This document shows positions 16,992 through 53,038 of a DNA stretch of 64,000 nucleotides, piece after piece. Position 1 is the stretch's first letter. Every line of letters begins with the position of its first letter. Position numbers and translations under genes: made by a program. The DNA lies in the IMG/VR virus record IMGVR_UViG_3300032562_000005; one strand, 5' to 3'. The DNA comes from a virus. The notes beneath the pieces are model-generated. The model did no database searches. It was not told the origin of the DNA and worked only from the letters and a program-made list of their open reading frames with translations.

Positions 16992-18902
16992 TTAGTTGGC
17001 TGGTGCGTTTTGACGGCGATTTGCTCTAGAAAAGTCAAATCTATTAACAAATTTAGTCATTCCGCCTGGATGTGATATAACCCAGCCCTCTTGTCCTGGA
17101 TGTTGGCGATCCAATTGCTGTAACATATCCATCTTAATATTATGTAACAATACAAAGGCAGAAAATGCGGCACTTAATCCATCCATATTACTTCTTGGAC
17201 TTTGTAAATATTCAACAATGTTATTATACTTGCGCGGTGTTACTTTAGTTTGTAACCATTTAGCAAATCCTGGAACTAGTGTGCTCACATCAAAATCTGC
17301 CACAGTATCATCTTTAACTAGACTATTAATATAATCTACACATAAACGAGGTAAATCGCTGATTTGTAACTGTCTAAGTTCAGCAGGACTAAACAAAGTA
17401 TTGATTGCTTGCCCGTGTCCACTGACTAAACCTTTTAATTGTTTGACTAAACTACTATCAGTTGGCTTAACATTCTCTTTAGGAGTAATAGGCTCAATAA
17501 GCAATAAGCCTGGAACTGAATTTAATTTTACATTTCCCAAAGGCTCTTTGCCAGCGCCTTGCTCTTTATAGTAAGTGTGGATAGCAATGCCAACTTGACT
17601 GCCAGCAATTTCTTGTCCTAGTTTTGAACTAACAGGAATATTATATTCTACAGTATTTGGTTTGAATACAAAAGCCCCAGATACTTCAGGCGGGGTACTT
17701 GTATAAAGTAAATCGCCTTGTATATAACCCCTAAAATCTTTAGGTGTGGCTTGCTCTAACATAGGCCAAAGTGTTTGGTAGATAGGAGCCAATTGCGCCA
17801 CACGATTCGCTGATAAACCTTTTGCTTTAGCTTCAGCATCGCGGTTAGCTAAATGTTGTGTAATTTGTTTTGGACTTGTAAACAATCCCTGATAGCCAAC
17901 TGCGCCAAACCCAGCTACATCTGTTAATACAAAAGTGCCATCTGGTTCCCGACCAAATACTACTGCTGGTTTTCCGTCCCATTTCACAGTAACAGATGAT
18001 GTTGTGTTATCTTTAAGATGCGCTATAACTGCTAATGCTTCTTTGATGCCAGCTGTCCCTTTGCGGAATACCAAGTCTTCGATATGTTCAATACCCTTAG
18101 CTTGTCCGCCTTTAACTTCAGTATTTTCGATTAATTTTGCCATTCCTTTGTTAACAATACGGTCACGCAAGCGAGCCAAGAAGTTTGTGTCTGACTCACC
18201 GCGTGTTTCAAAGAATGGTACTCCTGCTTTAGTAAAGTGATCTCGAGCTTGTGCTAATTTTTCATCTTTCTTAGGATCATTTTGTAGTGCCTGGACAATA
18301 GTTTCCACAGAGTAGAGGTCATCCTTCGTAGCTCTAGGGTTAAGTAAAATTTTAGCGATCTTGTCTGGATCGGTTTCAACAACTTCTTCATTAGCACGAT
18401 TAATAATACCACGGCGCTGATCTAGTTTATATCCTAATGCTTTAGCAACTGAGTTAATTAATATATTACGATCTGACCCTTTATATTCTGAATTTGCCGG
18501 AGCAGACAAAAAGAATTTACCTACTCCTAAATTTTTCATAAACATAAAATCGGTTTGTACATAGCCGTTATTAGGGTTTCCGTTTATAGGAGTTTTAAAA
18601 TGTATATTGGTGCCTGCTTTTTTAACATATTCATTTGGTTTTAAATTATGGCTAGTACACCATTGTGTAAGTTCTGCGGCTAATTGCTCAGGAGAAATTT
18701 CATTAATATCTACAGCTACATCTAAGTCTCCCGATGTAGGCTTCAATCCTGTACTACCTAAAGTATTATTTTGTAAATCAATATCCAACATTTGCTCAAG
18801 CCAATTTAATGTAGGCTTAACATCCGTTTGGTTAATTCGTTGTGTTAGGGCTTGGCCGTCTCCGTTTTTAAAAACATTGCCGCCTTCTTTTAATAATCTC
18901 AT
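16992..18902 (-). CDS. fusion of Pol-beta-type nucleotidyltransferase and KxDG RNA-ligase-like domain
   Basis: LGSTG....SGDLDVAV and VQTDF; VKWDG, QGDLLY, QEGWV, KFVNR. Confidence 0.7.
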   Translation of the reverse strand: MRLLKEGGNVFKNGDGQALTQRINQTDVKPTLNWLEQMLDIDLQNNTLGSTGLKPTSGDLDVAVDINEISPEQLAAELTQWCTSHNLKPNEYVKKAGTNIHFKTPINGNPNNGYVQTDFMFMKNLGVGKFFLSAPANSEYKGSDRNILINSVAKALGYKLDQRRGIINRANEEVVETDPDKIAKILLNPRATKDDLYSVETIVQALQNDPKKDEKLAQARDHFTKAGVPFFETRGESDTNFLARLRDRIVNKGMAKLIENTEVKGGQAKGIEHIEDLVFRKGTAGIKEALAVIAHLKDNTTSSVTVKWDGKPAVVFGREPDGTFVLTDVAGFGAVGYQGLFTSPKQITQHLANRDAEAKAKGLSANRVAQLAPIYQTLWPMLEQATPKDFRGYIQGDLLYTSTPPEVSGAFVFKPNTVEYNIPVSSKLGQEIAGSQVGIAIHTYYKEQGAGKEPLGNVKLNSVPGLLLIEPITPKENVKPTDSSLVKQLKGLVSGHGQAINTLFSPAELRQLQISDLPRLCVDYINSLVKDDTVADFDVSTLVPGFAKWLQTKVTPRKYNNIVEYLQSPRSNMDGLSAAFSAFVLLHNIKMDMLQQLDRQHPGQEGWVISHPGGMTKFVNRFDFSRANRRQNAPAN

Positions 18903-36273: not shown

Positions 36274-38541
36274 TTATCTAAGGAAGATGGAACTGACAGA
36301 TTTCATGGTAGTTAAATTGGAATCTGCTTGAGTTTCGGTTGGTGCGTCGGTTTCTCTGATTCCTGCTAAGAACTTAATTCTTGCCATCATATCTTCGTCA
36401 GTGCCTTCGACTGGTTCTAATTTGCCAGAGTGTCCGTACGGGCCAGTTAACGCTGTATTTTCGTTAACTTCTTTGGCAGAATGTAACTTATCTTTAAGTG
36501 CTTTTAACTTTTGACTTAACGGATCATTTAATCCCACACGACCGCCCGAGCGGACAATTTTTTCAATTTCATCTTGTACTTGTTTCATTTGGTCAGCAGT
36601 ACTACTAGCGGTTTCGTCCACTTCGTCATTGTTGCCGCTAATCATATTGCTCAATTTATCGCCTAATGTATCACCGATATGTGCGCCTATCATTCCGCTA
36701 CCTGGAATTTCTGGAGCAATTAATTCGCCGGCAATCAATCCCAATCCTTTACCAATAGCGCCTTCGTCGACGTCATAGTCTTTGGCTATATCATCATAAA
36801 TTATTTGTAATATTTTATCAATGTCGTCTTTTGGATGTAATCCAGTTTCGAATGTAATCTCGTCAATTTTATCATGAATTTGTTTACTTACAAATTTTTC
36901 TACATTAGTTTTTGGATTAGCATAGATATTGTAGATATCAACATTGTTGCGAGCAATATCTTGTAGTAAAATATCTACTTCGTTCATTGCGCCTTCTTTA
37001 ACTAAACGATTAACTGCCTTATGAATACCACGACGGCGATTGTTATCTTGCCGATCTTTTTCTGCGTCAAATTTTGGTTGACGTTCGCCATATGAAACGC
37101 CCATATCTACACCTTGGTCGAAGTTTTTCATAGCACGGTCAGAGCTTGCTCGCTTAACATAGCTACCTAATGTGTCTGGACTTAATTCGTCTAGCATATT
37201 AGGAGTAACTTCTGGTTGCTGTGTATTTGGTGGATCTTCTGTTTGTGTGTGTGGATCTTTAATGCGCTCTTGAACTGGTTCTTGTGAATCTGGGATTGGG
37301 TTCTTTAATTGTCCAATAACTTGTGCTATAGCTGGATTGCTTTTTAATTGTTCCAAACGAGAAAGAATAATTTCACGAGCGTCGGCATTGGCATCTTGTT
37401 CAGCCAATTCTTCTAAACGGTCAAACAATTCGTCATCGCCTAACAAGTCATATAATAGTTCTGTAGCATTAGTAGCATCAGGACCTACTGGTAATTCTTG
37501 ACTAAGCAAGCTAACTAGTTGAGCTTGTTTCTCTTTAGTATCCGGAACTGCCCAAGTACCTTCAAGAATAAGGTTTGCCCAATTTTCAAATATGTTAGCT
37601 TCTTTCATGCTTTGTTCCCGTTGTAATTTTGCCAATAATGGTAGTGCTTGCTCGATGCGTGAATCTATGTTTTGTTCCACAAACATATGACGCAAATCTT
37701 CGATAATAACATCTTCGTCACTTAATGCGGCTGGATCCCAACCTTCAAAATACTTTGCGTAACCATTTTTTGTACTTAAACTTTTTAGATTACTTTGTAA
37801 TGTTTCGTAATAATGTGTAGCTTGTTCTACTAAGTGCTGTGTTTCACCTTCAAAGATTTTACCTTGATTGGCACGACGGAAACGACTTAATAAATTCATT
37901 TCTTCAACAATAGTAGCAATATGTTGTCCGCGAATATCGTAAGGCTTACCACCTTGACGCACGTGTTCTACCATAGCACGACCAGCTGATAATTTTGTAA
38001 ACGGCAATTTATAGCGTTCACCTTCGGCTGTCTCTACAAATAAAGATTCTACATAACGGAAGCGAGCATCATTCTCGCCAATAGCTCGTTTATGTTTAAT
38101 CATTAGTCTAGCTTCAGTTTCTGCGCCATTCCATGATTGAGTTTTTGTGCCAGCCCAAGATTCAAATAAGCCTTCGCTAATTGCGGCTTGACCTTGCATA
38201 CTGTATTTTAATTTGTTTAAATTCTGTAATGAGAAACTTAATAAATTTCTCTTGGCAAACATACGCAATTGATATAAAAAGTCAAACCAACCTTTTTTGT
38301 CATCGCCTTCCATACTTTTACCAATATTATCGCCAAAGTAAACATTTAGATTATTGTCTTCGGTAAGCATCACAACTACTGTGCCATAGTTTTGTCCTGA
38401 TTCACCTTTGTAATCAAAAGAAAATAAATCAGCTTGTTCTGGAGATGGGGCAGGTTTGCCCATACTATCTAATGACTGCGGGTCAAAATTCTTACTAATG
38501 AGTAAGTCGTTTAATTTCTGGTTAGCGTTGTTTTCTGCCAT
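36274..38541 (-). CDS. large putative virion protein with modular C-terminal third
   Basis: 755 aa; TAAATA upstream; repeated LDE/VKE/VDE/VNE-delimited segments. Confidence 0.6.
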   Translation of the reverse strand: MAENNANQKLNDLLISKNFDPQSLDSMGKPAPSPEQADLFSFDYKGESGQNYGTVVVMLTEDNNLNVYFGDNIGKSMEGDDKKGWFDFLYQLRMFAKRNLLSFSLQNLNKLKYSMQGQAAISEGLFESWAGTKTQSWNGAETEARLMIKHKRAIGENDARFRYVESLFVETAEGERYKLPFTKLSAGRAMVEHVRQGGKPYDIRGQHIATIVEEMNLLSRFRRANQGKIFEGETQHLVEQATHYYETLQSNLKSLSTKNGYAKYFEGWDPAALSDEDVIIEDLRHMFVEQNIDSRIEQALPLLAKLQREQSMKEANIFENWANLILEGTWAVPDTKEKQAQLVSLLSQELPVGPDATNATELLYDLLGDDELFDRLEELAEQDANADAREIILSRLEQLKSNPAIAQVIGQLKNPIPDSQEPVQERIKDPHTQTEDPPNTQQPEVTPNMLDELSPDTLGSYVKRASSDRAMKNFDQGVDMGVSYGERQPKFDAEKDRQDNNRRRGIHKAVNRLVKEGAMNEVDILLQDIARNNVDIYNIYANPKTNVEKFVSKQIHDKIDEITFETGLHPKDDIDKILQIIYDDIAKDYDVDEGAIGKGLGLIAGELIAPEIPGSGMIGAHIGDTLGDKLSNMISGNNDEVDETASSTADQMKQVQDEIEKIVRSGGRVGLNDPLSQKLKALKDKLHSAKEVNENTALTGPYGHSGKLEPVEGTDEDMMARIKFLAGIRETDAPTETQADSNLTTMKSVSSIFLR

Positions 38542-40168: not shown

Positions 40169-40993
40169 TTAATCGTCTGAAGCGTTAGCTCCGCATTTTT
40201 GGCGTTTCATTTGAGTTAATTTTCCAAAATCCACACTCCATTCTTTACCTGGGGCTAATTCAATATAACCTTGTGGTAAAGCATACTTAACTTGTGCGTC
40301 TGCCATGATAGTAGCAACAGGAACACGGAATTTAGTTAAGTCATTACCCAAGTTAGGGTATGGTGCTGTATGTGGGAAGCCCCAGCCGGCTACTTCTTTA
40401 GTTTGATTGTTGATTACAATCTTGTAAAAGCCATGTGGTACAATAACGCCTTTACCAATAACTTTATCGCCTTGCCCATACAAACCACCCGCAATAACTG
40501 TGTACGACTGGTTGCGTTGTACAGCCCAACCACGAACACTAGTTTCTAATAATTTCCAAATACCACGGTTCAACGAGCCGGCTTGTGGGCTCATATTAGT
40601 CATTAAGAATGATTCATATTCTACTTGTGGATCCCATGATAAATCACCATCTGGAGCCATGTGTCCTTTATCGTAACCTGTGCCAGCATAGTCGCCTGGA
40701 ACAGCGCCATTTTGAACAAATTGATTTGGAGCAAATGCGTTAGTACGAGCGACACAACCTAATGCGTTTTGTGGCAATAATTCATACATAACAAATTCTG
40801 GTAACTTAGCTTGTGCGTCATAGCCTACTAGATACGCTTGTTGGCATAATGGCTGTATTGGTTTAGCACTTTGTGGGAAACCATATGGTGCGTGTGCTTG
40901 ACATTGTGCTACTGGAAATGGGGCACGTTGTGTCCACGCAAATACTGTTGATGTTGCTAAGACTAATAATAGTCCTGTAAATAACTTCTTCAT
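40169..40993 (-). CDS. secreted DNA/RNA non-specific endonuclease (NucA/EndoG family)
   Basis: Signal peptide; YDKGHMAP, SFLMTNMSPQ...LNRGIW..LE. Confidence 0.9.
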   Translation of the reverse strand: MKKLFTGLLLVLATSTVFAWTQRAPFPVAQCQAHAPYGFPQSAKPIQPLCQQAYLVGYDAQAKLPEFVMYELLPQNALGCVARTNAFAPNQFVQNGAVPGDYAGTGYDKGHMAPDGDLSWDPQVEYESFLMTNMSPQAGSLNRGIWKLLETSVRGWAVQRNQSYTVIAGGLYGQGDKVIGKGVIVPHGFYKIVINNQTKEVAGWGFPHTAPYPNLGNDLTKFRVPVATIMADAQVKYALPQGYIELAPGKEWSVDFGKLTQMKRQKCGANASDD

Positions 40994-41010: not shown

Positions 41011-41412
41011 TTATTTTCTTTTATAACCAGCAAATCCTGTAACAGGACTTACTTTATCTATATCTGGCATTTCTTCACTAGCCATTGTGGCTATTTGTAT
41101 AGCATCGTCGCCAGGTAATCCCATAGCTATTAACGCATCACGAATATATACTCCGGTATGCGGATCATAACTTACTACAAATTCATTTTCACCAAATACA
41201 TTATCTTTTTCAAATGGCGGTACACCATCTTTTTTACGCTGAGCAGCGCCTTTTGCCCCGGCAATAGCTACACCAAACCGATATTGTAAATATGGATCTT
41301 GATTTTTAAGTGCTGGAATTTTCCACGCACCTGGTAAAGCTAACGCAATATCTTGTTGTAAACTACCTGTTCGACCAAGAGCTACTTCTGTGATGAATTC
41401 TTTAGCTCTCAT
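41011..41412 (-). CDS. putative internal head protein (paralog of 41409..41777)
   Basis: MRAKEFITE start; ends SPVTGFAGYKRK. Confidence 0.65.
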   Translation of the reverse strand: MRAKEFITEVALGRTGSLQQDIALALPGAWKIPALKNQDPYLQYRFGVAIAGAKGAAQRKKDGVPPFEKDNVFGENEFVVSYDPHTGVYIRDALIAMGLPGDDAIQIATMASEEMPDIDKVSPVTGFAGYKRK

Positions 41413-41777
41413 TTTCTTTTATAACCTGCAAATCCTTTTACAGGACTTGTTTTGTGTACTGTACTAGGTTCTTCAGATTTAATAGTGCTAATCGGTGTGC
41501 TTTTTTCGCCCATAGCCTTTGCTGTCGCATTTAAAATATCTGCGTCACCTTGACTGTAAGCTAGTGTAGATAATTTTTGTCCAATAGGACCCAACTTAGC
41601 TAGCGGTGGATGCGGATTATCTTTGCCACCGCATCCAGCAGCCGCTACAATAAAACGCCACATAGCATAAGGATTAGAGTTATCTAAGCCGTCATAACGC
41701 TCGGCGCCGGCCATAGGCATTAGTTGCTCATCTGAAAATTTTTCATGAGCTTCGGCTATGAACTCTTTAGCTCGCAT
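41409..41777 (-). CDS. putative internal head protein (paralog of 41011..41412)
   Basis: MRAKEFIAE start; ends SPVKGFAGYKRK. Confidence 0.65.
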   Translation of the reverse strand: MRAKEFIAEAHEKFSDEQLMPMAGAERYDGLDNSNPYAMWRFIVAAAGCGGKDNPHPPLAKLGPIGQKLSTLAYSQGDADILNATAKAMGEKSTPISTIKSEEPSTVHKTSPVKGFAGYKRK

Positions 41778-42326: not shown

Positions 42327-44864
42327 TTATTTTACAATCTTAGCGAATGCTTTGTACAAATTCAAAAAGCTACTAGCTTCAGAAACTTGACGCTCATCTT
42401 GACTTGCTAATACAGGAATAGTAGACTGTCCAGTTGACTTAGGCCCATTTAATCCGCCACTATATTGTAATGCATCATCATCATATTCTTGATTAGAAGG
42501 ATAATCTGGACTGTTTTGTGTAACAGGAGCATCTGCTTCGGCAATTTCTTCTTCATCGCTAGTATCAGTAATAGAAGCTGTAGGATCGCTAGCAGCAGGA
42601 GCGGCAGCAGGAGCAGAATTTAATTTGTCATCTACATAATCGCCAATTTTATCGCCAGCATATCCGCCAGCTACAGCACCTAATGGGCCAGCTACTGAAC
42701 CTAAAGCGGCTCCAGCAATAGCACCCTTAACGCCTTCTTCCATATCATTCATCTCATCACATTGGCATGGGACGCCACCACAAGTACCGCAAGCGCCATC
42801 GTCATGTGAGTGACCTTCTTCGCTTGATTGAATACCCATTGCGGCTAATAACTCTTTGATACGATGTACATCAGCACCTGTGGCTGTAATTGTAATCGCT
42901 TCTTCGTCACCATCTTCTGCGTGTTCAACTACTTGTTGTTTAACTTGAACTGATTCACTAATCATAGCTTCGATATCACGATTCCATGAATCGTAAATGC
43001 CGCCGCCAAATTTCATGCCGCCAGATTTAGCAGCTTTTGGCGCAGAAGTTGCTACGCTACCAGAAGTTGTTGTTTCATCAACTTTCTCTTCTTTTTTAAA
43101 TTTCTTCTTACCGCCTTCTTCGTCTTTACCAAGACGCCCAGCGATAACATCACCCTTAGTTACTTTGTCATAAGGTTTAGCATTGTTGGCTAAATTGCCG
43201 TCGCCCTTACCTTCTTCAGTCTTTTTAACTTTTTTAGGTAACTTACTAATGTCTTTACCTTTGTCGGCTTTGTTAAATTCTTTGCCTACAGACTGTTTGA
43301 TTCCAACTTTTTTAGCAAATTTAGGATTGTGTGCTACACCAGCCATCATGTGTGCTTGTGCTTGGCTTTTTGATTTTTCAGCAATCATTTGTCCACATTC
43401 AGAACAAACATGATCACCTTCTTCACGAATGGAACCTTTAGACATTAATTTACTTTTGCCAGTAGGTCCACGGGAACCTGTAGCACCTTTAGTACCAGCT
43501 GGGCGGCCACGACCACGCTTAACTGCTGATCCGCTATCATCACTAGCATCTGGCTCATCAAATGTTTCTGGCTTGCGTGTGTACACAGTACCAGTTGATG
43601 TTTTACGCTTATCAAACTTGCCTGTGCCTTTTTCTGCTTCGCGCTGTTTCAACCAAGCATCCATGTCGTCAAAACCTTCTTCAACAGCGCCATCGCCTGT
43701 TAAATTATTGCCAATTGCGCCACCAATAGCAGCGCCCACTGGCCCACCTAGTGCGCCACCAGCTAATGTACCAGCCGCTTGGCCAGCGATGCCTTCATCA
43801 GTGATACCAGCTGCTTTAAAGAAACGAGCTTGGTCAAATCGTGGATTAGCTAACTTAAATGCTGACGCATGGTGTTGCGCTAATTCTTTACGCTTATTCA
43901 TATCTTCGATATGCTTGAGTGTATCAGCAATAGCTTGGAAATGTTTACGACTTACTGCTTCGTCGAGTTCGCTTGTATCTGTATACTCTTCGCCGCCAAC
44001 TTTAAATTTGCCACCTTTAGGTGTTGATTTAAGTTTGCCAGTAAATGCGTTGCCTTCAAATTCCATGCCGTTGTGTGCGTCTGGCTTGCCAGTGCCTTTA
44101 TTGTATGAAGTTGCTACAGCATCTTCACGAGCTTGTTCTTTGTCGTGTGGAGCTAATTTACGATTTAAATAATCCATAATATCTTCTTCACTATGGTCAG
44201 CTTCGTAATAATCACGCTTGCCACGCAAACGATCCATCTTACCTGGTACTGGAACATTTCCCGGAATACCTTTTGATGGAGTTGGATTATCACATTCCAT
44301 TTCACTGCCGCCATCTTCTTTGGCTACATTCTTAGCAAACTGTGCCATGTGGCGTAAGTGTGCGTCTTTACTATGTGTTGCTTTACTAATCTTACCTTTA
44401 GGAATCTTTTCACCTTGTGGCACATGGAGAGCTTTATGTAAGTCGCCTTTTGTGCTTGGCTTAGTAGCTTTTTGAATCCACTTTTCTTTTTTCTCTTCTA
44501 AACTTCCTGATCCAGAAAAGTTTGCGCCGCCTGTGCCATCTTCCTTGGTCATACGAGCTAAACCTTTTTCGCGGCGAGCGGCGGACATAGCAGACATTTC
44601 CTTATCTTTAGGACTTGGTGCTGGATTATTTTTATTACGATTGTAAATGTTTACTTCTGCTTTTGCTTTTTTAGCATAACTATCTTTTGTAGATTGGCTA
44701 ATTTCGTTTACTTGGCCTTCCATTAATGCTGTCAAATCTTGACGCAATGCTTGCTCAAGTGTTTGACGAGCAGGAGTTTTAGGAGCTTCTTTACTCTCTG
44801 CTAATTTTTTCTGTTCAGCGCCAATGCCGTTTAGTTTTTTGTTAAGGTCGTAAAAAAAGCTCAT
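42327..44864 (-). CDS. mosaic putative internal-head polyprotein
   Basis: 845 aa of short dissimilar modules separated by hydrophobic-x-E motifs. Confidence 0.6.
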   Translation of the reverse strand: MSFFYDLNKKLNGIGAEQKKLAESKEAPKTPARQTLEQALRQDLTALMEGQVNEISQSTKDSYAKKAKAEVNIYNRNKNNPAPSPKDKEMSAMSAARREKGLARMTKEDGTGGANFSGSGSLEEKKEKWIQKATKPSTKGDLHKALHVPQGEKIPKGKISKATHSKDAHLRHMAQFAKNVAKEDGGSEMECDNPTPSKGIPGNVPVPGKMDRLRGKRDYYEADHSEEDIMDYLNRKLAPHDKEQAREDAVATSYNKGTGKPDAHNGMEFEGNAFTGKLKSTPKGGKFKVGGEEYTDTSELDEAVSRKHFQAIADTLKHIEDMNKRKELAQHHASAFKLANPRFDQARFFKAAGITDEGIAGQAAGTLAGGALGGPVGAAIGGAIGNNLTGDGAVEEGFDDMDAWLKQREAEKGTGKFDKRKTSTGTVYTRKPETFDEPDASDDSGSAVKRGRGRPAGTKGATGSRGPTGKSKLMSKGSIREEGDHVCSECGQMIAEKSKSQAQAHMMAGVAHNPKFAKKVGIKQSVGKEFNKADKGKDISKLPKKVKKTEEGKGDGNLANNAKPYDKVTKGDVIAGRLGKDEEGGKKKFKKEEKVDETTTSGSVATSAPKAAKSGGMKFGGGIYDSWNRDIEAMISESVQVKQQVVEHAEDGDEEAITITATGADVHRIKELLAAMGIQSSEEGHSHDDGACGTCGGVPCQCDEMNDMEEGVKGAIAGAALGSVAGPLGAVAGGYAGDKIGDYVDDKLNSAPAAAPAASDPTASITDTSDEEEIAEADAPVTQNSPDYPSNQEYDDDALQYSGGLNGPKSTGQSTIPVLASQDERQVSEASSFLNLYKAFAKIVK

Positions 44865-45481
44865 TTGTAGTTTCCTGATGGTTGTGCGCCAGTTGCTGGC
44901 TTGCGTGGACGCTTTTCTGCGTGTGTCATTGGAGAGTCATCACCTTGTGGTAACTCATTTGTTGTTTCAGCAGGCTTAGGACTTCCGCCAGCAATAGTAA
45001 AGTTGCTACGATAAGCATTTTTTAATACAGCATGGTCAAATGGATCAGCTGAATAATCTTTCTTCAATGCTTTTTGTTCTGCGTTGTCAGCAGGATAATC
45101 AGTATCGTTTAATAATGATTCAGGTTGGTCTTCAACTTGCTTATTGATAAAGTCAACGCTGTCATCAAATACCGATGTTTGCATAATAATTTTATTTTCA
45201 TCAAACCCAAGTAGTCGAGCAATTTGTTTAATTTGCGGTTCGATTGCTGGGTAGCGTAACTTAACATCAAAGCTAGTAACTTTTTGATTTTCTTGTGCTG
45301 GAAAATCGGCTGGTTTAGCTTGAATTGGAGTTGACTTATCTGCGCCAATTGACAATGGATCAAATTGGTCAAGTTTGCTTTTAAGTTTTGTGATAAATCC
45401 TGAAGGCAAATCACCAACTACTTTGATACGATAGTTATATGTGCGCTCGGATTCTGCTAAGTAATCTTTAAAATTTTTCAT
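44861..45481 (-). CDS. putative head-associated protein
   Basis: MKNFKDYLAE start; TATAAATA at 45499-45506. Confidence 0.6.
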   Translation of the reverse strand: MKNFKDYLAESERTYNYRIKVVGDLPSGFITKLKSKLDQFDPLSIGADKSTPIQAKPADFPAQENQKVTSFDVKLRYPAIEPQIKQIARLLGFDENKIIMQTSVFDDSVDFINKQVEDQPESLLNDTDYPADNAEQKALKKDYSADPFDHAVLKNAYRSNFTIAGGSPKPAETTNELPQGDDSPMTHAEKRPRKPATGAQPSGNYK

Positions 45482-45506
45482 GATTGTTTCCTATATTATA
45501 TTTATA

Positions 45507-46004
45507 CTAATTGTCTTTTTGTGCTCTGTCGCTAAGTAAGCGTTCCAGCAAATCATTGCGAGTTAATACCTGTCCTTCGGCCGTAGGAATGCTGGTTAAA
45601 TCCCCGGATTTTTTGGCGGCGTCTTGATCTAACTTTAACTTTTTAAGTTGCAAGTCAATCATTTTTAATTTTTTATTCAGTTTAGTAGTTTTCGCTGTTA
45701 GTGCGTGTCCCAGCATATTCCCAGCCACAGCAAACAATTCTGCGGCAAATCTACTGTCTACATTCATGCCCAAATCGGATAAATCTTGATAGCTTTGTTT
45801 GGCTAATTCTGCTATTTCGTCTAGTTCTTTATCACTTGCTTCCAAATCACGAATAGCAGGTAATGCTTCGTCAATTTTATCTATAGTATCATCAATTTCT
45901 ATGATAGCTGTGCGTGTCTCTTCTGGAGTTAGCGTTTCGCTAATAGAAGGAGCCATATTCTCTTCATCAGTAAATCCAAACAATTCTTCAAGTTTCTTAG
46001 TAAT
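45507..46004 (-). CDS. possible terminase small subunit (probable ATT start, (M)TKKLEELF)
   Basis: Helical ~165 aa upstream of the terL region; AAGGAG 7 nt before in-frame ATT. Confidence 0.45.
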
Positions 46005-46605
46005 TTTGAGTCTCCTTTTTACATTCTTTGTGCCAGCGGGCTAAATTACCTTTGTTTGTAATAGTTCCGCATCGAGGGCAACAAACTTTTTTCTGTAATT
46101 TTGAGATTGATATTGCTAATTCTTCAGGATTATTTTTCAAATATTCTTTTCGTGTCTTGCTCTGTTGATCTCTTAATTTAGGATCTGCCCATATTTTTGT
46201 ATTTGTTTCTTTTAATAATTCACGGGTAGATATTTTTACTGTTTTATCGCGAGTTTTCCAGGCTTCGATATAACCAGCATTTGATTGTTTTGGTTTGCGA
46301 CCGTTAGGTTGTGCTACGCCTTTGCGTTGTTGCGAGCGGTTTACTAATTGTTCTTGCGAGAATTTATACCCAGCTGTACCATCACCGCCGTCTGTCATAT
46401 TGCGTAAAATGCCAGTGCCCAAATCTTTGCGTCCGTACCAGCTAATAAGACGGCGTTCAATAGCACAAGCACCTAAATCTGTTAAATTTTTTTCTACAAT
46501 AACAATTCTATGCTCATCTGTAGGAACTTTAACATTGTGTTCCTTAGGAGTAAGTGTATCTTTGCGCAAGTAAGCATAAACATAGTAGGTTAAATCAGAA
46601 TTCAT
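45997..46605 (-). CDS. degenerate GIY-YIG homing endonuclease
   Basis: YYVYAYLR...[27 protein letters not shown] but no YIGKG..R segment. Confidence 0.7.
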
Positions 46606-49363: not shown

Positions 49364-52300
49364 TTAAGCAGCAGCCTGCGCCGCAATCGCTCCAGTGTTT
49401 TCGATACGCAATGGAATATAGATGAATTCCACAGCTTTTACTGGCTCAATAGCAATATCAACCCATAACTGATTTTGATCGATTGTAGTTGGTGTATTGT
49501 TTGTGTTATCACATACAACCAAGTAATCGTAAATACCGCGTTTAGCAACCAAGTCAATCATTAAACTTACGATTGAGTTACTGATTTCTGTACGGGTAAT
49601 TTGATCATTTGGTTCAAACAAATATTGCTTACCAATTGTTTCAAGTCTAGTACGGATAAAGCATACTAAACGAGCTACGTTGATACGGTCTAATGCTGTA
49701 GCTGTAGCTTGTAATGTCTTATTACCAAAGTTAGTAATACCAACACCTGGGATATAAGTGATTGGATTAATTTGGTTTTCATACAATACATCGCGCAATG
49801 ATTGTCCAACGCCTAATGTTTCAAATACACCAGTAATACCATTTAAGTAACCTAACTGGAATGCGTTATCAACTAAACCACGACGTGTTCCAGCTGGAGC
49901 TAACCAAGGATAAGCAATTTCATCGCTACGAATAATTGTGCGAATCATCATGTGACTTGGATAAGTTACACAATAGTTTCCGCTCAAATCAGTTGTCTGA
50001 CAGCTTGGATAGAATGTGCCACCGTAAGCATCGCCAGCTGCTAAATTGCCATCGCCTGTTGGTAAACCTAAACCATTATTATCAGTTGCCCATGTAACAA
50101 TATCTGCTGGAGCAAGGCGTAATGGGGTATCAATAATGCTAAATGCCACATTATTAATTTCATTATTCAATGCTACCATGTTAGGAGCCAATTCTGGATA
50201 TCCAGGAACAGCGATTAAGTTGTAAGAATTTTGTTCTTCACGAATCTGTGTATTAGTATCAATAGCACTCTTCATAGCTTTAACAATAATTTCACGCTGA
50301 GCTTGACGACCCATGTATGGTGAACCATCTGGACGATTTCCTGTAGCAGTTAACCATGTATTTGTTACAGTTTGTACTGACCAATAAGTTGGACTTGTGT
50401 CTGGCTCTTGATTTGAGTTATTTTGAATACAAGCATACACAATATTATCATACTGGACATATTGACCAATTGTATAAGATGTTGTAGAAACCCAGTCGTA
50501 TGTTGGGAAAGTATTATTGTTAAAATAATTTGATTGATATGTTTTAACATTAAATCCTGAACGACGAGTATTCCATAACAACATTCCTGTTGGATATAAT
50601 AATGCGTCTGGAGCATCTAGATCCAAGTAATTACTTGTTAATAAACTTTGGATTGTTGGTAAAGCAGCAGATACAGGATCTGTTGTACCATTTGGAGCCC
50701 AACGAGCATCTTGGAATAAAATACCATTAGATTGTGTAGCATCTGTGTTATCAATTTGTGCCCATTGATCTACACCGTTAACATTTTGCCAACGAGATAA
50801 AATTGGATAATCTTCTAAATCAGAAGTATTAACCCATAAATCGCCATATACTAATGGTGATGTATTGTCAGTTTGTGTTAATGGTGGAGTAGCACTAATG
50901 ATTGGACCAGTAGCATTGGTTTGAGATAAATCATAACCACGGCTGTCAGATGTACAATTTTGATATCCTGTCCATACACCATTGTTTTGAATCATGATAT
51001 CTACTTGTGTAGCATCACTATAATACCAATATGTGCCATCAGTTGGATCTTGATCTGGAGCCACATCAGATGCTGTGTATGTAAATGTTGTGCTACCTAC
51101 CCAGTTACTTAAAACTAAACCAGCGGCAGCACCGTTAACATAACGCTGACGGCATAAGAAAGTACTAGTTGTAAAGCCAGCATCAGTAACAACAGTTCCG
51201 CCATTTAAATCAACTAATTCAATGTCTCCGCCTTTGCTATGTTGCATTACAATAGCGCCAGCACTATTAATAGTAGCACTTACATAAGGAATGCCAGCGG
51301 CACTAATAGCGGCTACAAAGTCGCTAGCTGTTGGATTACCTGAATGTCCAATAGACACTAAACTAACTGTGCGCCATTGATTAACTGCTGTGCCAGGCTG
51401 ACTTGCGCCTAATGAGAAAGATTGTCCAGAACTAAATGTTTGTGTTGTATTGCTACCGGTAACAATAGTTGGGCCTGTTGTGTAACGTTCAAGAATTTGA
51501 TATCCCGATGTGCCATCACTAACTGGATTAGATCTAGCATATAAAGTGCCAGTAGGAATGCCTTGGCCGCCACCCGATGGATCTAAACCATAAAGAGCAG
51601 CGTTATCACTAGGATATACTGTTACGGATTGTATTACATATAACCCTAATGTAGAGTTATATTGCTTCATTACAATACTTGTGCCTTGGTTTACACTATT
51701 AGATTTTTGCCACACAGAGCCTGTTGGTTCTGGCATAGCACTAAATGTATTCCATTGTGGTACAGTATAACTTGGACTTACTTGATATTCTGGAGCATTG
51801 TATGTTCCTGCTGTTAAGCCTAACGCAGCAAATGAAGTGCCAGCATTATTAGCAAGAACTACTGTTCCTTCATTTATAGCAGTACCTGTGCCGCTTACAT
51901 ATGGAGCTGTAGTTGTAGTCGCAAAAGTTACAGTAGTAGATGTTGACGCTGTAACTGTATAATAGCCATTATATAATGATGTATTAGCTGATCCAGTGTT
52001 ACTAACTCCAGAAAGATAAATTGTACTGCCAATAACATATGGTGTTGGTACTGCTGTACTAAATGTTACAGTAGCAGTAGTGCCATTAGATGTTAAATTA
52101 GTTATAGATGACACAATACCTGCCGTAGTATCAGCATATAAGTTTAATGCGCCACCGATATTAGCCGCATATACTCCAGTAATACCTGCTTGGTTAATAG
52201 CATCAACAATAAGAGATACAGTAGGACTCGACGGTACAGTAATTAATATATTATTAATTTTAAATGTATCACTAGCTGTTAATGATGAACTACTTGGTGT

Positions 52301-53038
52301 ATTTGTGCCTTGAATAGTTGGCCAAGAAGTTTGCCATGGGGCACTACCAAGTTGAACCCAAGTATTATACAAATTACCAAAATAAGCAGCTGCATACGAA
52401 CCAGCTTGCGATGCTGTTGGGCCGCCACGCTTGAAATAAATTGGATTAGATGTGTTAGTAGCAACAACAGCATATTGGCCAATACTGCCATAACTTTGTA
52501 ATGGTACAGTTGATGATGGAGTCAAGTAATCTTGATTTGTAATTACTGACGGAATTACATTAGTAAATGTTCCACTAACTTGATTCCATGTGAATAATCC
52601 CCATTGTGTATTAACTGTATCTAACCAGTAAGTACCATTATCTGGACTTCCTGTTGGGCGGGTTAATGATGCTGTAAGAGCAGCTAAGTCAATATCAGCA
52701 CGAAGTACATAACATTGATTTGTAACACCTAACGCAGAATAAGCAGCTAATAAGCCGTATTCATTAAGTTCATATCCATTGATAGGAGTACCGTTAGTTG
52801 TTTGATAGAAGAACGGAACACCATAGTTGGCAGATAGAGCTCGTTGACTAGTTGCTAAGAACAATTTGCCAGCATTTACGGCTAATGTTCCTGGGGCAAT
52901 ACCTGTACCATCTGCGGATAGTTTATTTGACGCTGTAGCGATAACTACAAACGGCACCGAATTCGTAGCGGCCGGAAGATATTGACTTTCGTCAACTACT
53001 GTAACTTGTACGCCTGGAGATACTAATGTGCTAGCCAT
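49364..53038 (-). CDS. tail sheath protein (gp18-like) with large insertions
   Basis: LVSPGVQVTVVDES; WLAPAGTRRG; RINVARL; FEPND; AVEFIYIP. Confidence 0.93.
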   Translation of the reverse strand: MASTLVSPGVQVTVVDESQYLPAATNSVPFVVIATASNKLSADGTGIAPGTLAVNAGKLFLATSQRALSANYGVPFFYQTTNGTPINGYELNEYGLLAAYSALGVTNQCYVLRADIDLAALTASLTRPTGSPDNGTYWLDTVNTQWGLFTWNQVSGTFTNVIPSVITNQDYLTPSSTVPLQSYGSIGQYAVVATNTSNPIYFKRGGPTASQAGSYAAAYFGNLYNTWVQLGSAPWQTSWPTIQGTNTPSSSSLTASDTFKINNILITVPSSPTVSLIVDAINQAGITGVYAANIGGALNLYADTTAGIVSSITNLTSNGTTATVTFSTAVPTPYVIGSTIYLSGVSNTGSANTSLYNGYYTVTASTSTTVTFATTTTAPYVSGTGTAINEGTVVLANNAGTSFAALGLTAGTYNAPEYQVSPSYTVPQWNTFSAMPEPTGSVWQKSNSVNQGTSIVMKQYNSTLGLYVIQSVTVYPSDNAALYGLDPSGGGQGIPTGTLYARSNPVSDGTSGYQILERYTTGPTIVTGSNTTQTFSSGQSFSLGASQPGTAVNQWRTVSLVSIGHSGNPTASDFVAAISAAGIPYVSATINSAGAIVMQHSKGGDIELVDLNGGTVVTDAGFTTSTFLCRQRYVNGAAAGLVLSNWVGSTTFTYTASDVAPDQDPTDGTYWYYSDATQVDIMIQNNGVWTGYQNCTSDSRGYDLSQTNATGPIISATPPLTQTDNTSPLVYGDLWVNTSDLEDYPILSRWQNVNGVDQWAQIDNTDATQSNGILFQDARWAPNGTTDPVSAALPTIQSLLTSNYLDLDAPDALLYPTGMLLWNTRRSGFNVKTYQSNYFNNNTFPTYDWVSTTSYTIGQYVQYDNIVYACIQNNSNQEPDTSPTYWSVQTVTNTWLTATGNRPDGSPYMGRQAQREIIVKAMKSAIDTNTQIREEQNSYNLIAVPGYPELAPNMVALNNEINNVAFSIIDTPLRLAPADIVTWATDNNGLGLPTGDGNLAAGDAYGGTFYPSCQTTDLSGNYCVTYPSHMMIRTIIRSDEIAYPWLAPAGTRRGLVDNAFQLGYLNGITGVFETLGVGQSLRDVLYENQINPITYIPGVGITNFGNKTLQATATALDRINVARLVCFIRTRLETIGKQYLFEPNDQITRTEISNSIVSLMIDLVAKRGIYDYLVVCDNTNNTPTTIDQNQLWVDIAIEPVKAVEFIYIPLRIENTGAIAAQAAA

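Follow-up and report, generated by a model that had tools for sequence, protein, structure and literature searches.

We analysed a 64,000-nucleotide stretch of viral DNA (IMG/VR record IMGVR_UViG_3300032562_000005; hereafter the window) and focused on P0001, an 845-codon open reading frame (ORF) on the minus strand (42327-44864) encoding a protein of 845 amino acids (aa). P0001 is probably a head-targeted polyprotein cut by a T4-type prohead protease. The gene and the modules into which the protein can be divided are given below, where an arrow marks a predicted scissile bond, [LIVM]xE is the hydrophobic-x-Glu motif, and pLDDT is the predicted local distance difference test score.

42327..44864, minus strand: putative polyprotein gene P0001; its ATG overlaps the upstream stop codon (ATGA), with a Shine-Dalgarno-like AGGAAAC in front.
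44718..44864, minus strand: residues 1-49, conserved N-terminal leader MSFFYDLNKKL.., which contains LAE23↓ and ends with LME49↓.
44493..44702, minus strand: residues 55-124, basic helical ISQSTKDSYAKKA module, after VNE54↓ and ending with LEE124↓; found in about 10-30% of homologues.
44307..44492, minus strand: residues 125-186, helical mini-domain KWIQK..LHKALHVPQGEKIP..RHMAQFAKN (pLDDT 84-89 at 141-180), promiscuous, with many other carriers.
44055..44306, minus strand: residues 187-270, DIMDYLNRKLAPHDKEQA, moderately conserved, mainly disordered, ending with MEFE270↓.
43959..44054, minus strand: residues 271-302, beta-hairpin GNAFTGKL..GGKF.V.G.EYTDTS, ending with LDE302↓; N-terminal, middle or C-terminal in homologues.
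43794..43958, minus strand: residues 303-357, three-helix module RKHF..NPRFD (pLDDT about 90), flanked by LDE302↓ and TDE357↓.
43677..43793, minus strand: residues 358-396, glycine-zipper module 1, variable in occupancy, ending with VEE396↓G.
43422..43676, minus strand: residues 397-481, conserved basic fragment (net charge +6) whose RGRP core is AT-hook-like; all of 50 homologues keep G453, R454 and P455.
43074..43376, minus strand: residues 497-597 (net charge +12), a DUF3008-like module after IAE496↓, then a GDGNLANN..PYDKVT.GDVIAGRLG module, ending with the invariant VDE597↓.
42735..43073, minus strand: residues 598-710, the most conserved core, acidic, with TTTSGSVAT.., a helix/hairpin/helix island (623-675) and the Cys motif CGTCGGVPCQC.
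42537..42734, minus strand: residues 711-776, glycine-zipper module 2 and an acidic linker, variable, ending with IAE776↓.
42330..42536, minus strand: residues 777-845, conserved C-terminal block ADAPV.QN.PDYP..YSGGLNGPKSTGQ.TIPV, with VSE829↓ and a terminal helix.

Cutting P0001 at all sites would yield fragments of 5-178 residues (computed). In addition to fragments 397-481 and 497-597, fragment 55-124 is basic (+4), and the C-terminal third is acidic. Searches of P0001 and its segments against Pfam revealed neither enzymatic nor peptidase domains, the matches being confined to weak ones with glycine-zipper and AT-hook families, and a profile search of the PDB with P0001 gave no match.

A first-pass annotation, made from the sequence alone, had described P0001 as a string of unlike segments, most of them starting directly after a hydrophobic-x-Glu site. 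All ten junctions quoted there were found (VNE54↓ISQSTKDSYAKKA, LEE124↓KKEKWIQKA, LDE302↓AVSRKHF, TDE357↓GIAGQ, VEE396↓GFDD, IAE496↓KSKSQAQ, VDE597↓TTTSGSVA, MEE710↓GVKG, IAE776↓ADAP and VSE829↓ASS), as was the AT-hook-like KRGRGRP (residues 450-456). The number of motifs in P0001 alone is not clearly above chance (15 [LIVM]xE versus 10.2 ± 2.8 in shuffled sequences, p=0.07, marginal), and the support comes from its relatives. Over 121 homologues, [LIVM]xE[GAST] occurred at 2.46 times the shuffle expectation, versus 0.78 times for [LIVM]xD[GAST], and homology break points lay within 3 aa (≤3 aa) of [LIVM]xE twice as often as expected, the control motifs giving ratios of 0.7-1.4. In P0001 these break points map to 49, 123/127, 270, 302, 394, 494, 598, 707 and 772-777. 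Twelve Glu residues are at least 90% conserved, eight of them at P1 of the motif; in a 50-sequence alignment, V595, E597 and E637 were invariant and E123, E302, E396, E496, E776 and E829 were conserved in at least 90% of the sequences. Overall, conservation of the P1 Glu was 0.83, versus 0.63 for other Glu residues (p=0.006), and replacement by Asp was rarer at P1 than at other Glu residues (0.017 versus 0.108, p=0.015). Break points and site conservation in the family thus agree with the view of P0001 as a mosaic of small modules flanked by hydrophobic-x-Glu.

The family is large, with at least 762 homologues of 480-1226 aa found by database searching, all of them metagenomic. The aligned backbone is conserved at residues 1-48, 108-125, 393-470, 495-545, 590-705 and 773-845, the inserts between these blocks are present in only 10-30% of the members, and some relatives carry additional LysM and PG_binding modules. 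The orthologues, whose gain, loss or reordering of modules had been proposed as a check, are not collinear: modules have been inserted, deleted and repositioned. The GNAF..GGKF..EYTDTS hairpin is located near the N-terminus in P0020, in the middle of P0001 and directly before the C-terminal block in P0068 and P0076, and in these locations the P1 residue in front of it is always Glu and its end is always [LV]xE. A 65-residue FTPQDIKAALDYENP module is present in two copies in P0064 and at another location in P0015, a PDFLDLDKDG module also shifts position among homologues, and in two relatives (contigs L021 and L024) the leader (residues 1-49) is fused directly to another module. The [LIVM]xE joint would double as the unit of module exchange.

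The same modules are found in proteins other than the homologues of P0001. The KWIQK..HVPQGEKIP..RHMAQFAKN module (127-186) recurs on IMG/VR contigs at 60-78% identity in several protein types: "mini-polyproteins" of 246-344 aa, proteins of 161-218 aa with the module at the C-terminus, and a 718-aa protein. The last of these, encoded upstream of the terminase in another T4-type phage (L025/L028, 4117-6273, plus strand), starts with MKFADFHNTKLAE↓A and has five near-identical GVAE↓ joints between unrelated segments, with the KWIQK module coming last, after VMAE↓. The mini-polyproteins (L039-L070, e.g. L060, 5869-6609, plus strand) start with MYMKNLFQDAF.. or MSTFANKFLKALNE↓; GNAF-type and KWIQK modules are repeated in them, and their C-terminal domain is conserved. 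On L061 the gene stands alone on the opposite strand amid replication and queuosine genes. A PHROG search of the mini-polyproteins and of gp335 from Pseudomonas phage PA5oct yielded nothing useful.

An exhaustive HMMER search placed the RKHF..NPRFD module (303-357) in 457 clusters of proteins of 81-1099 aa. It can occupy any position in its carrier, is nearly always aligned over its full length, and forms the exact C-terminus in 38 of 147 occurrences. An [LIVM]xE motif was present within 8 residues upstream in 135 of 141 cases, versus a background of 14.7%, and [LIVM]xD in 19. The residues at this putative site (P3: L 62%, I 27%; P2: D/E/N; P1: E 100%; P1': A/T/S/G) give a logo that matches the (L/I)-x-E rule of T4. 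In distinct contexts, [LIVM]xE also stood in front of the KWIQ module (38 of 44), the DUF3008-like module (12 of 14) and the ISxxTLxSYxKKA module (18 of 18; the ISQSTKDSYAKKA module, residues 55-124, in P0001). Several module carriers, located in large T4-like phage contigs, begin with leaders such as MKSFSQFLQE↓A.

Two of these modules have free-standing counterparts. The RKHF module could be aligned end to end with bb8_p04 (41% identity, pairwise E 2e-10), a 53-aa early-region ORF of Bordetella phage BB8, which is T7-like; the Met of this ORF aligns one residue past the predicted scissile bond; it also aligns with the N-terminus of gp49 from mycobacteriophage Konstantine and is present in an 81-aa protein, P0200, starting MAGATRKHF. 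The DUF3008-like module (AHNPKFAKKVG; residues 497-546) matched phrog_16759 (E 6e-17, positions 3-51 of 58 of the profile). It also matched ORFs of 52-64 aa, from Stenotrophomonas phage BUCT555 and from an IMG/VR contig, and one of 87 aa from 201phi2-1. The DUF3008 profile (PF11450) itself had no local match in P0001 and scored 16.6-20.4 bits in relatives, below the 24-bit cut-off, and precomputed tables list it for some homologues. The free-standing forms lack the [LIVM]xE prefix, with bb8_p04 and P0200 starting at Met. A word-based search for close homologues of 30-116 aa recovered no RKHF module standing alone; KWIQK was never found alone, the same search giving only three fragments on tiny contigs. 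The first-pass annotation had likened three modules to small stand-alone phage proteins, and this was borne out for AHNPKFAKKVG and RKHF..NPRFD, whereas KWIQKA was seen only inside larger carriers. It had also proposed that the gene captures microproteins; this is one possible direction of exchange only, and the modules look more like a shared pool moving between head-targeted carriers.

Another protein of the window bears on the reuse of modules. The gene for a 755-aa virion-type protein (36274-38541, minus strand), downstream of the terminase, encodes a glycine-zipper segment after DVDE↓ that weakly matches P0001 (E 0.006) and an LDE↓LSPDTLGSYVKRA stretch resembling the ISxxTLxSY module type; its relatives of 818-853 aa have glycine-zipper matches in Pfam. 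The matches weakly suggest that P0001 modules may be reused in this protein.

In a structure predicted with AlphaFold2 from the family alignment, the pLDDT of P0001 averaged 53.7 and was below 50 at 471 of 845 residues (56%). The confident regions were the islands 140-183, 306-351, 399-430 and 623-675 and the terminal helices, the longest helix being about 23 residues, and this succession of folded islands amid disorder accords with the unlike composition noted for the segments. Short dips in confidence at 23-26, 53-56 and 299-303 fall exactly on sites. The ESM Atlas provided no usable match, and its own model of P0001 was disordered. With the whole model, the long Foldseek matches were meaningless (template modelling score below 0.1), and a probability of 1.0 was obtained only for small viral proteins of 51-86 aa, for which the output did not include the aligned range.

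It is highly improbable that P0001 is a tail tape measure or another protein of the tail lumen. Its gene follows those for the sheath, the tube and the tube-like protein, its glycine-zipper segment weakly matches tape-measure and tail-lysin PHROGs (E 3.5e-4 to 1e-2), and homologues carry LysM. However, the model contains no long helix or coiled coil and is mostly below a pLDDT of 50, the PHROG tape-measure matches are limited to the low-complexity zipper, and the gene comes after a head-completion gene, among leader-bearing genes near the terminase. Furthermore, the protein varies from 480 to 1226 aa among syntenic relatives, while the sheath stays at 1147-1224 aa. The tape measure proper was rejected in view of the lack of a long helix and this variation in length.

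The head-targeted reading also draws on the surroundings of the gene, in which three further features are of importance.

44861..45481, minus strand: 206-aa gene upstream of P0001 and translationally coupled to it, starting MKNFKDYLAE↓S (33% identity to PA5oct gp282).
45499..45506, minus strand: T4-type late promoter box TATAAATA, 17 nucleotides upstream of the ATG of the 206-aa gene.
41011..41777, minus strand: two tandem paralogues of 133 and 122 aa, starting MRAKEFITE↓V and MRAKEFIAE↓A, with divergent bodies.

The AGGAAAC sequence also precedes the 206-aa gene. The TATAAATA box occurs in only three copies within the 64 kilobases, each on the coding strand ahead of genes, and is kept at the same place in two metagenomic relatives (L004 and L006). 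Given this box, its conservation and the coupling with the 206-aa gene, P0001 appears to belong to a late operon.

The two paralogues on the 3' side of P0001 are represented in two syntenic relatives by two or three copies each, five in all, which start with MRANEFVIE, MRAREFITE, MRAREFIAE, MRAREFIIE and MRAREFLNE (consensus MRA[NR]EF[IVL]xE) and then diverge completely. The pair looks like a hypervariable array of the T4 internal-protein type in which a capsid-targeting-like leader is conserved. In T4, the capsid-targeting sequence of IPI-III, MKTYQEFIAE, is removed by gp21 (PMC8442874) and Alt is cleaved at ITE-6 and LTE-619 (PMC5694885). The leaders of the neighbours and the MKNFKDYLAE↓S start of the 206-aa protein therefore place P0001 within a cluster showing the hallmarks of T4-type head cargo. 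In the leader of P0001 itself, F4, Y5, L7 and N8 are invariant and LME49 lies at an insert boundary; residues 1-49 are the candidate head-targeting propeptide. Elsewhere in the window, a 636-aa protein (phrog_455; 16992-18902, minus strand) starts MRLLKE↓GG, a short leader ending in hydrophobic-x-Glu.

Annotation with PHROG and Pfam showed the order of genes along the minus strand to be a gp13/14-like adaptor, an exonuclease and a deoxynucleoside monophosphate (dNMP) kinase, followed by the 1224-aa sheath, tube and tube-like protein. Then come a gp4-like head-completion protein, a homing endonuclease, a 158-aa protein, the 206-aa protein and P0001. On the 3' side of P0001 are a 177-aa protein, the two small paralogues and a nuclease with a signal peptide, and past this nuclease the large terminase, the 755-aa virion protein, gp32 and UvsX. 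The gene order is the same in the jumbo Pseudomonas phage PA5oct, and the large terminase is 52% identical to its PA5oct counterpart. The source of the window is an uncultured jumbo myophage related to PA5oct, in the PA5oct/T4-type lineage.

Several of these neighbours have features of their own. The homing-endonuclease-like ORF (202 aa; 45507-46605, minus strand) lies between the gp4-like gene and the 158-aa gene; the latter starts MTKKLE... in relatives without the endonuclease, and the ORF listed here begins at a TTG partway in. The sheath (49364-53038, minus strand) is long at 1224 aa versus a 915-position profile, its relatives being of 1147-1222 aa, which implies a putative large insertion. 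The 274-aa nuclease (40169-40993, minus strand), identified as Endonuclease_NS in relatives, has a signal-peptide-like N-terminus (MKKLFTGLLLVLATSTVFA) and is conserved between the leader-bearing genes and the terminase; these two features together suggest that the phage may encode an exported non-specific nuclease.

PA5oct is the nearest cultured relative. At the position of P0001 it encodes gp281, an acidic protein of 498 aa, and immediately upstream gp282, homologous to the 206-aa protein of the window; both were detected in virions by electrospray ionization tandem mass spectrometry (ESI-MS/MS). PA5oct also encodes a T4 gp21-type prohead protease of the Peptidase_S77 family (E 7e-25), a gp67-like protein that begins MKINDIITE↓G, a capsid protein with several [LIVM]xE sites in its N-terminal region and, next to the protease at the scaffold position, a helical protein of 368 aa, probably the scaffold, with about 35 [LIVM]xE sites. 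With S77 in PA5oct and the leaders on the neighbours of P0001, the T4-type cleavage rule suits the lineage. A search for S77 in the IMG/VR fragments gave no match.

It is unlikely, if conceivable, that P0001 is a core or filler protein of the prohead, targeted and cut at the same sites, with fragments that are expelled like those of T4 gp22 or serve as DNA counter-ions or spacers, with no role in the infected cell. The gp22, gp67 and gp68 proteins of T4 are cut into short fragments, most of which leave the head (PMC5694885), the N-terminal 600 residues of P0001 are basic and its C-terminal 250 acidic, and the invariant AT-hook-like RGRP core would fit the management of DNA charge. However, PA5oct already has the separate helical, [LIVM]xE-rich protein at the scaffold position by the protease, P0001 is mostly disordered, without coiled coil, and a T7-like phage encodes one of the modules as an ORF in its early region. 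The turnover of modules is also high for structural filler, and the LysM, PG_binding and glycine-zipper modules of homologues make sense only outside the capsid. A scaffold of the gp22 type was rejected as a candidate, as P0001 is not helical and adjoins the terminase, and the scaffold-position protein of PA5oct is a separate one.

Several observations weigh against the interpretation of P0001 as a head-targeted, cleaved polyprotein. No homology between gp281 and P0001 was detected by BLASTP or hhalign (E 0.7), so the link with this virion protein is therefore positional (synteny) only. The genes for the prohead protease and major capsid protein lie outside the window, and the specificity of the protease is taken from T4 and from the leaders. 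P0001 itself has a leader unlike the MRAKEFIAE one of its neighbours, and LAE23 is present in 62% of homologues only. No full-length relative was found in cultured phages, the tblastn matches being limited to the DUF3008-like piece. At some junctions (MEFE270, TDE357 and the one that closes the DUF3008-like module) the P3 residue is not a canonical one. Of the 15 sites, 11 fall where the pLDDT is below 50, which is not significant alone, given that 56% of the protein is disordered. Finally, the spacing between the motif and the RKHF module is fixed (2 residues in 127 of 155 cases), and the motif could therefore belong to the module.

This fixed distance is the best argument for an uncut, multi-module ejection or virion protein, one flexible chain losing at most its leader, in which [LIVM]xE would be a helix-capping or linker feature that travels with the module. 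The internal proteins of T4 are cut only once (PMC8442874), and polyvalent proteins can be delivered whole (PMC5512222). Nevertheless, the same tripeptide rule applies before at least four unrelated module families, including disordered ones, and the free-standing copies of modules do not have the tripeptide. P1 is strictly Glu, essentially never Asp, and P3 is L or I, which is the rule of T4 gp21 and not a capping preference, and the GVAE↓ joints in L025 are identical between unrelated modules. We therefore consider an uncut protein to be quite unlikely.

The predicted polyprotein shares features with four known systems. Like T4 IPI-III and Alt, P0001 appears to be encoded by a late gene, beside an array of small proteins with MRAKEFIAE leaders that nearly copy MKTYQEFIAE, its putative sites have (L/I/V/M)-x-Glu followed by a small residue, its predicted fragments are of the size of IPI*, and the cargo varies between relatives. 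Unlike the T4 internal proteins, which are single and cut once behind the leader, it is one chain with about ten conserved internal sites, at which cuts are predicted, and interchangeable modules of 30-100 residues, and its leader differs from the MRAKEFIAE of the neighbours. It resembles T4 gp22, gp67 and gp68 in being one polypeptide with multiple prohead protease sites, predicted in the case of P0001, and some of the T4 core cleavage products, the internal peptides, stay in the head. Unlike these core proteins, P0001 is not helical or scaffold-like, is not encoded beside the protease and capsid genes, is far more variable, and has modules (AT-hook, glycine zippers and RKHF, with LysM in relatives) that exist as independent genes or in other carriers.

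The polyvalent proteins (Iyer et al. 2017, PMC5512222) are likewise long mosaics encoded near packaging genes, with variable domain content and predicted co-delivery with DNA and processing, and the P0001 gene, located between head-completion and structural genes and the large terminase, behind a late promoter, has the late, packaging-associated location of this type. However, polyvalent proteins are built mainly from normal-sized enzymatic domains, and their processing is ascribed to zincin-like peptidase domains that they carry themselves (PMC5512222). P0001, in contrast, lacks both enzymatic and peptidase domains, consists of micro-domain modules and has joints that match the predicted rule of the phage head protease. 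In the phiKZ-like phages (SPN3US, phiKZ and 201phi2-1), the propeptides of head-internal proteins are removed after Glu by an S80/S77-related protease, several of these proteins having multiple sites (PMC5694885). These ejection or inner-body proteins share with P0001 the Glu-directed prohead protease sites, predicted in the latter, but have the motif A/S/G-x-E, long propeptides and one mature product each; a string-of-modules architecture is undescribed in them, and the phage encoding P0001 belongs to the PA5oct/T4-type lineage. None of these systems combines a leader, many internal joints and interchangeable micro-modules. P0001 is distinctive in its non-enzymatic micro-domain modules, two of which have free-standing phage homologues, and in very strong junction statistics across independent carriers. 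A literature search, with subscription journals outside its coverage, yielded no description of such proteins with leader, joints and micro-modules.

In the reading that we favour, we infer that the polyprotein is targeted to the head and cleaved and that its fragments are kept there and later ejected, as well as any host function, the cuts after Glu in hydrophobic-x-Glu being predicted from signatures in the sequence. The conserved N-terminal leader would bring the late-expressed P0001 into the assembling prohead core, where a prohead protease of the T4 gp21 type (S77) would cleave it behind the Glu of the conserved [L/I/V/M]-x-E sites between modules. About ten fragments of roughly 15-180 residues would result: basic and probably DNA-associated fragments (AT-hook, DUF3008-like), two glycine-zipper fragments, helical mini-domains and the conserved part at the C-terminus, which is acidic. 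Those comparable in size to T4 IPI* would be retained in the head and exit with the DNA.

The junction motif may serve as a universal joint, the same motif-preceded modules being found in hundreds of other T4-type phage carriers. We tentatively propose, as a possibility that goes further than cleavage of P0001 itself, that any microprotein preceded by [L/I]-x-Glu could be spliced into a head-targeted carrier, loaded, freed at maturation and delivered with the DNA, P0001 being one high-turnover carrier among hundreds exchanging micro-effectors.

The scale involved is considerable, with at least 762 family members and a single module in 457 protein clusters. Provided that the cuts are real, the role of the T4 head protease would extend beyond capsid maturation to freeing a combinatorial set of small proteins from one gene. 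Real cuts would also point to micro-proteins that may act in the first seconds of infection, as candidates for anti-defence or host take-over. If the wider proposal on microproteins is correct, early-gene functions of small phages, such as that of the RKHF microprotein in a T7-like phage, would be available ahead of all transcription. Cleavage at the joints, if real, would provide phage engineering with a natural template for packing several payloads into T4-type capsids by means of one construct, and the leader and [L/I]xE joints would constitute a simple sequence rule for virion-delivered cargo in metagenomes. It would likewise account for a large group of jumbo and T4-like phage "structural proteins" that look disordered and lack annotation.

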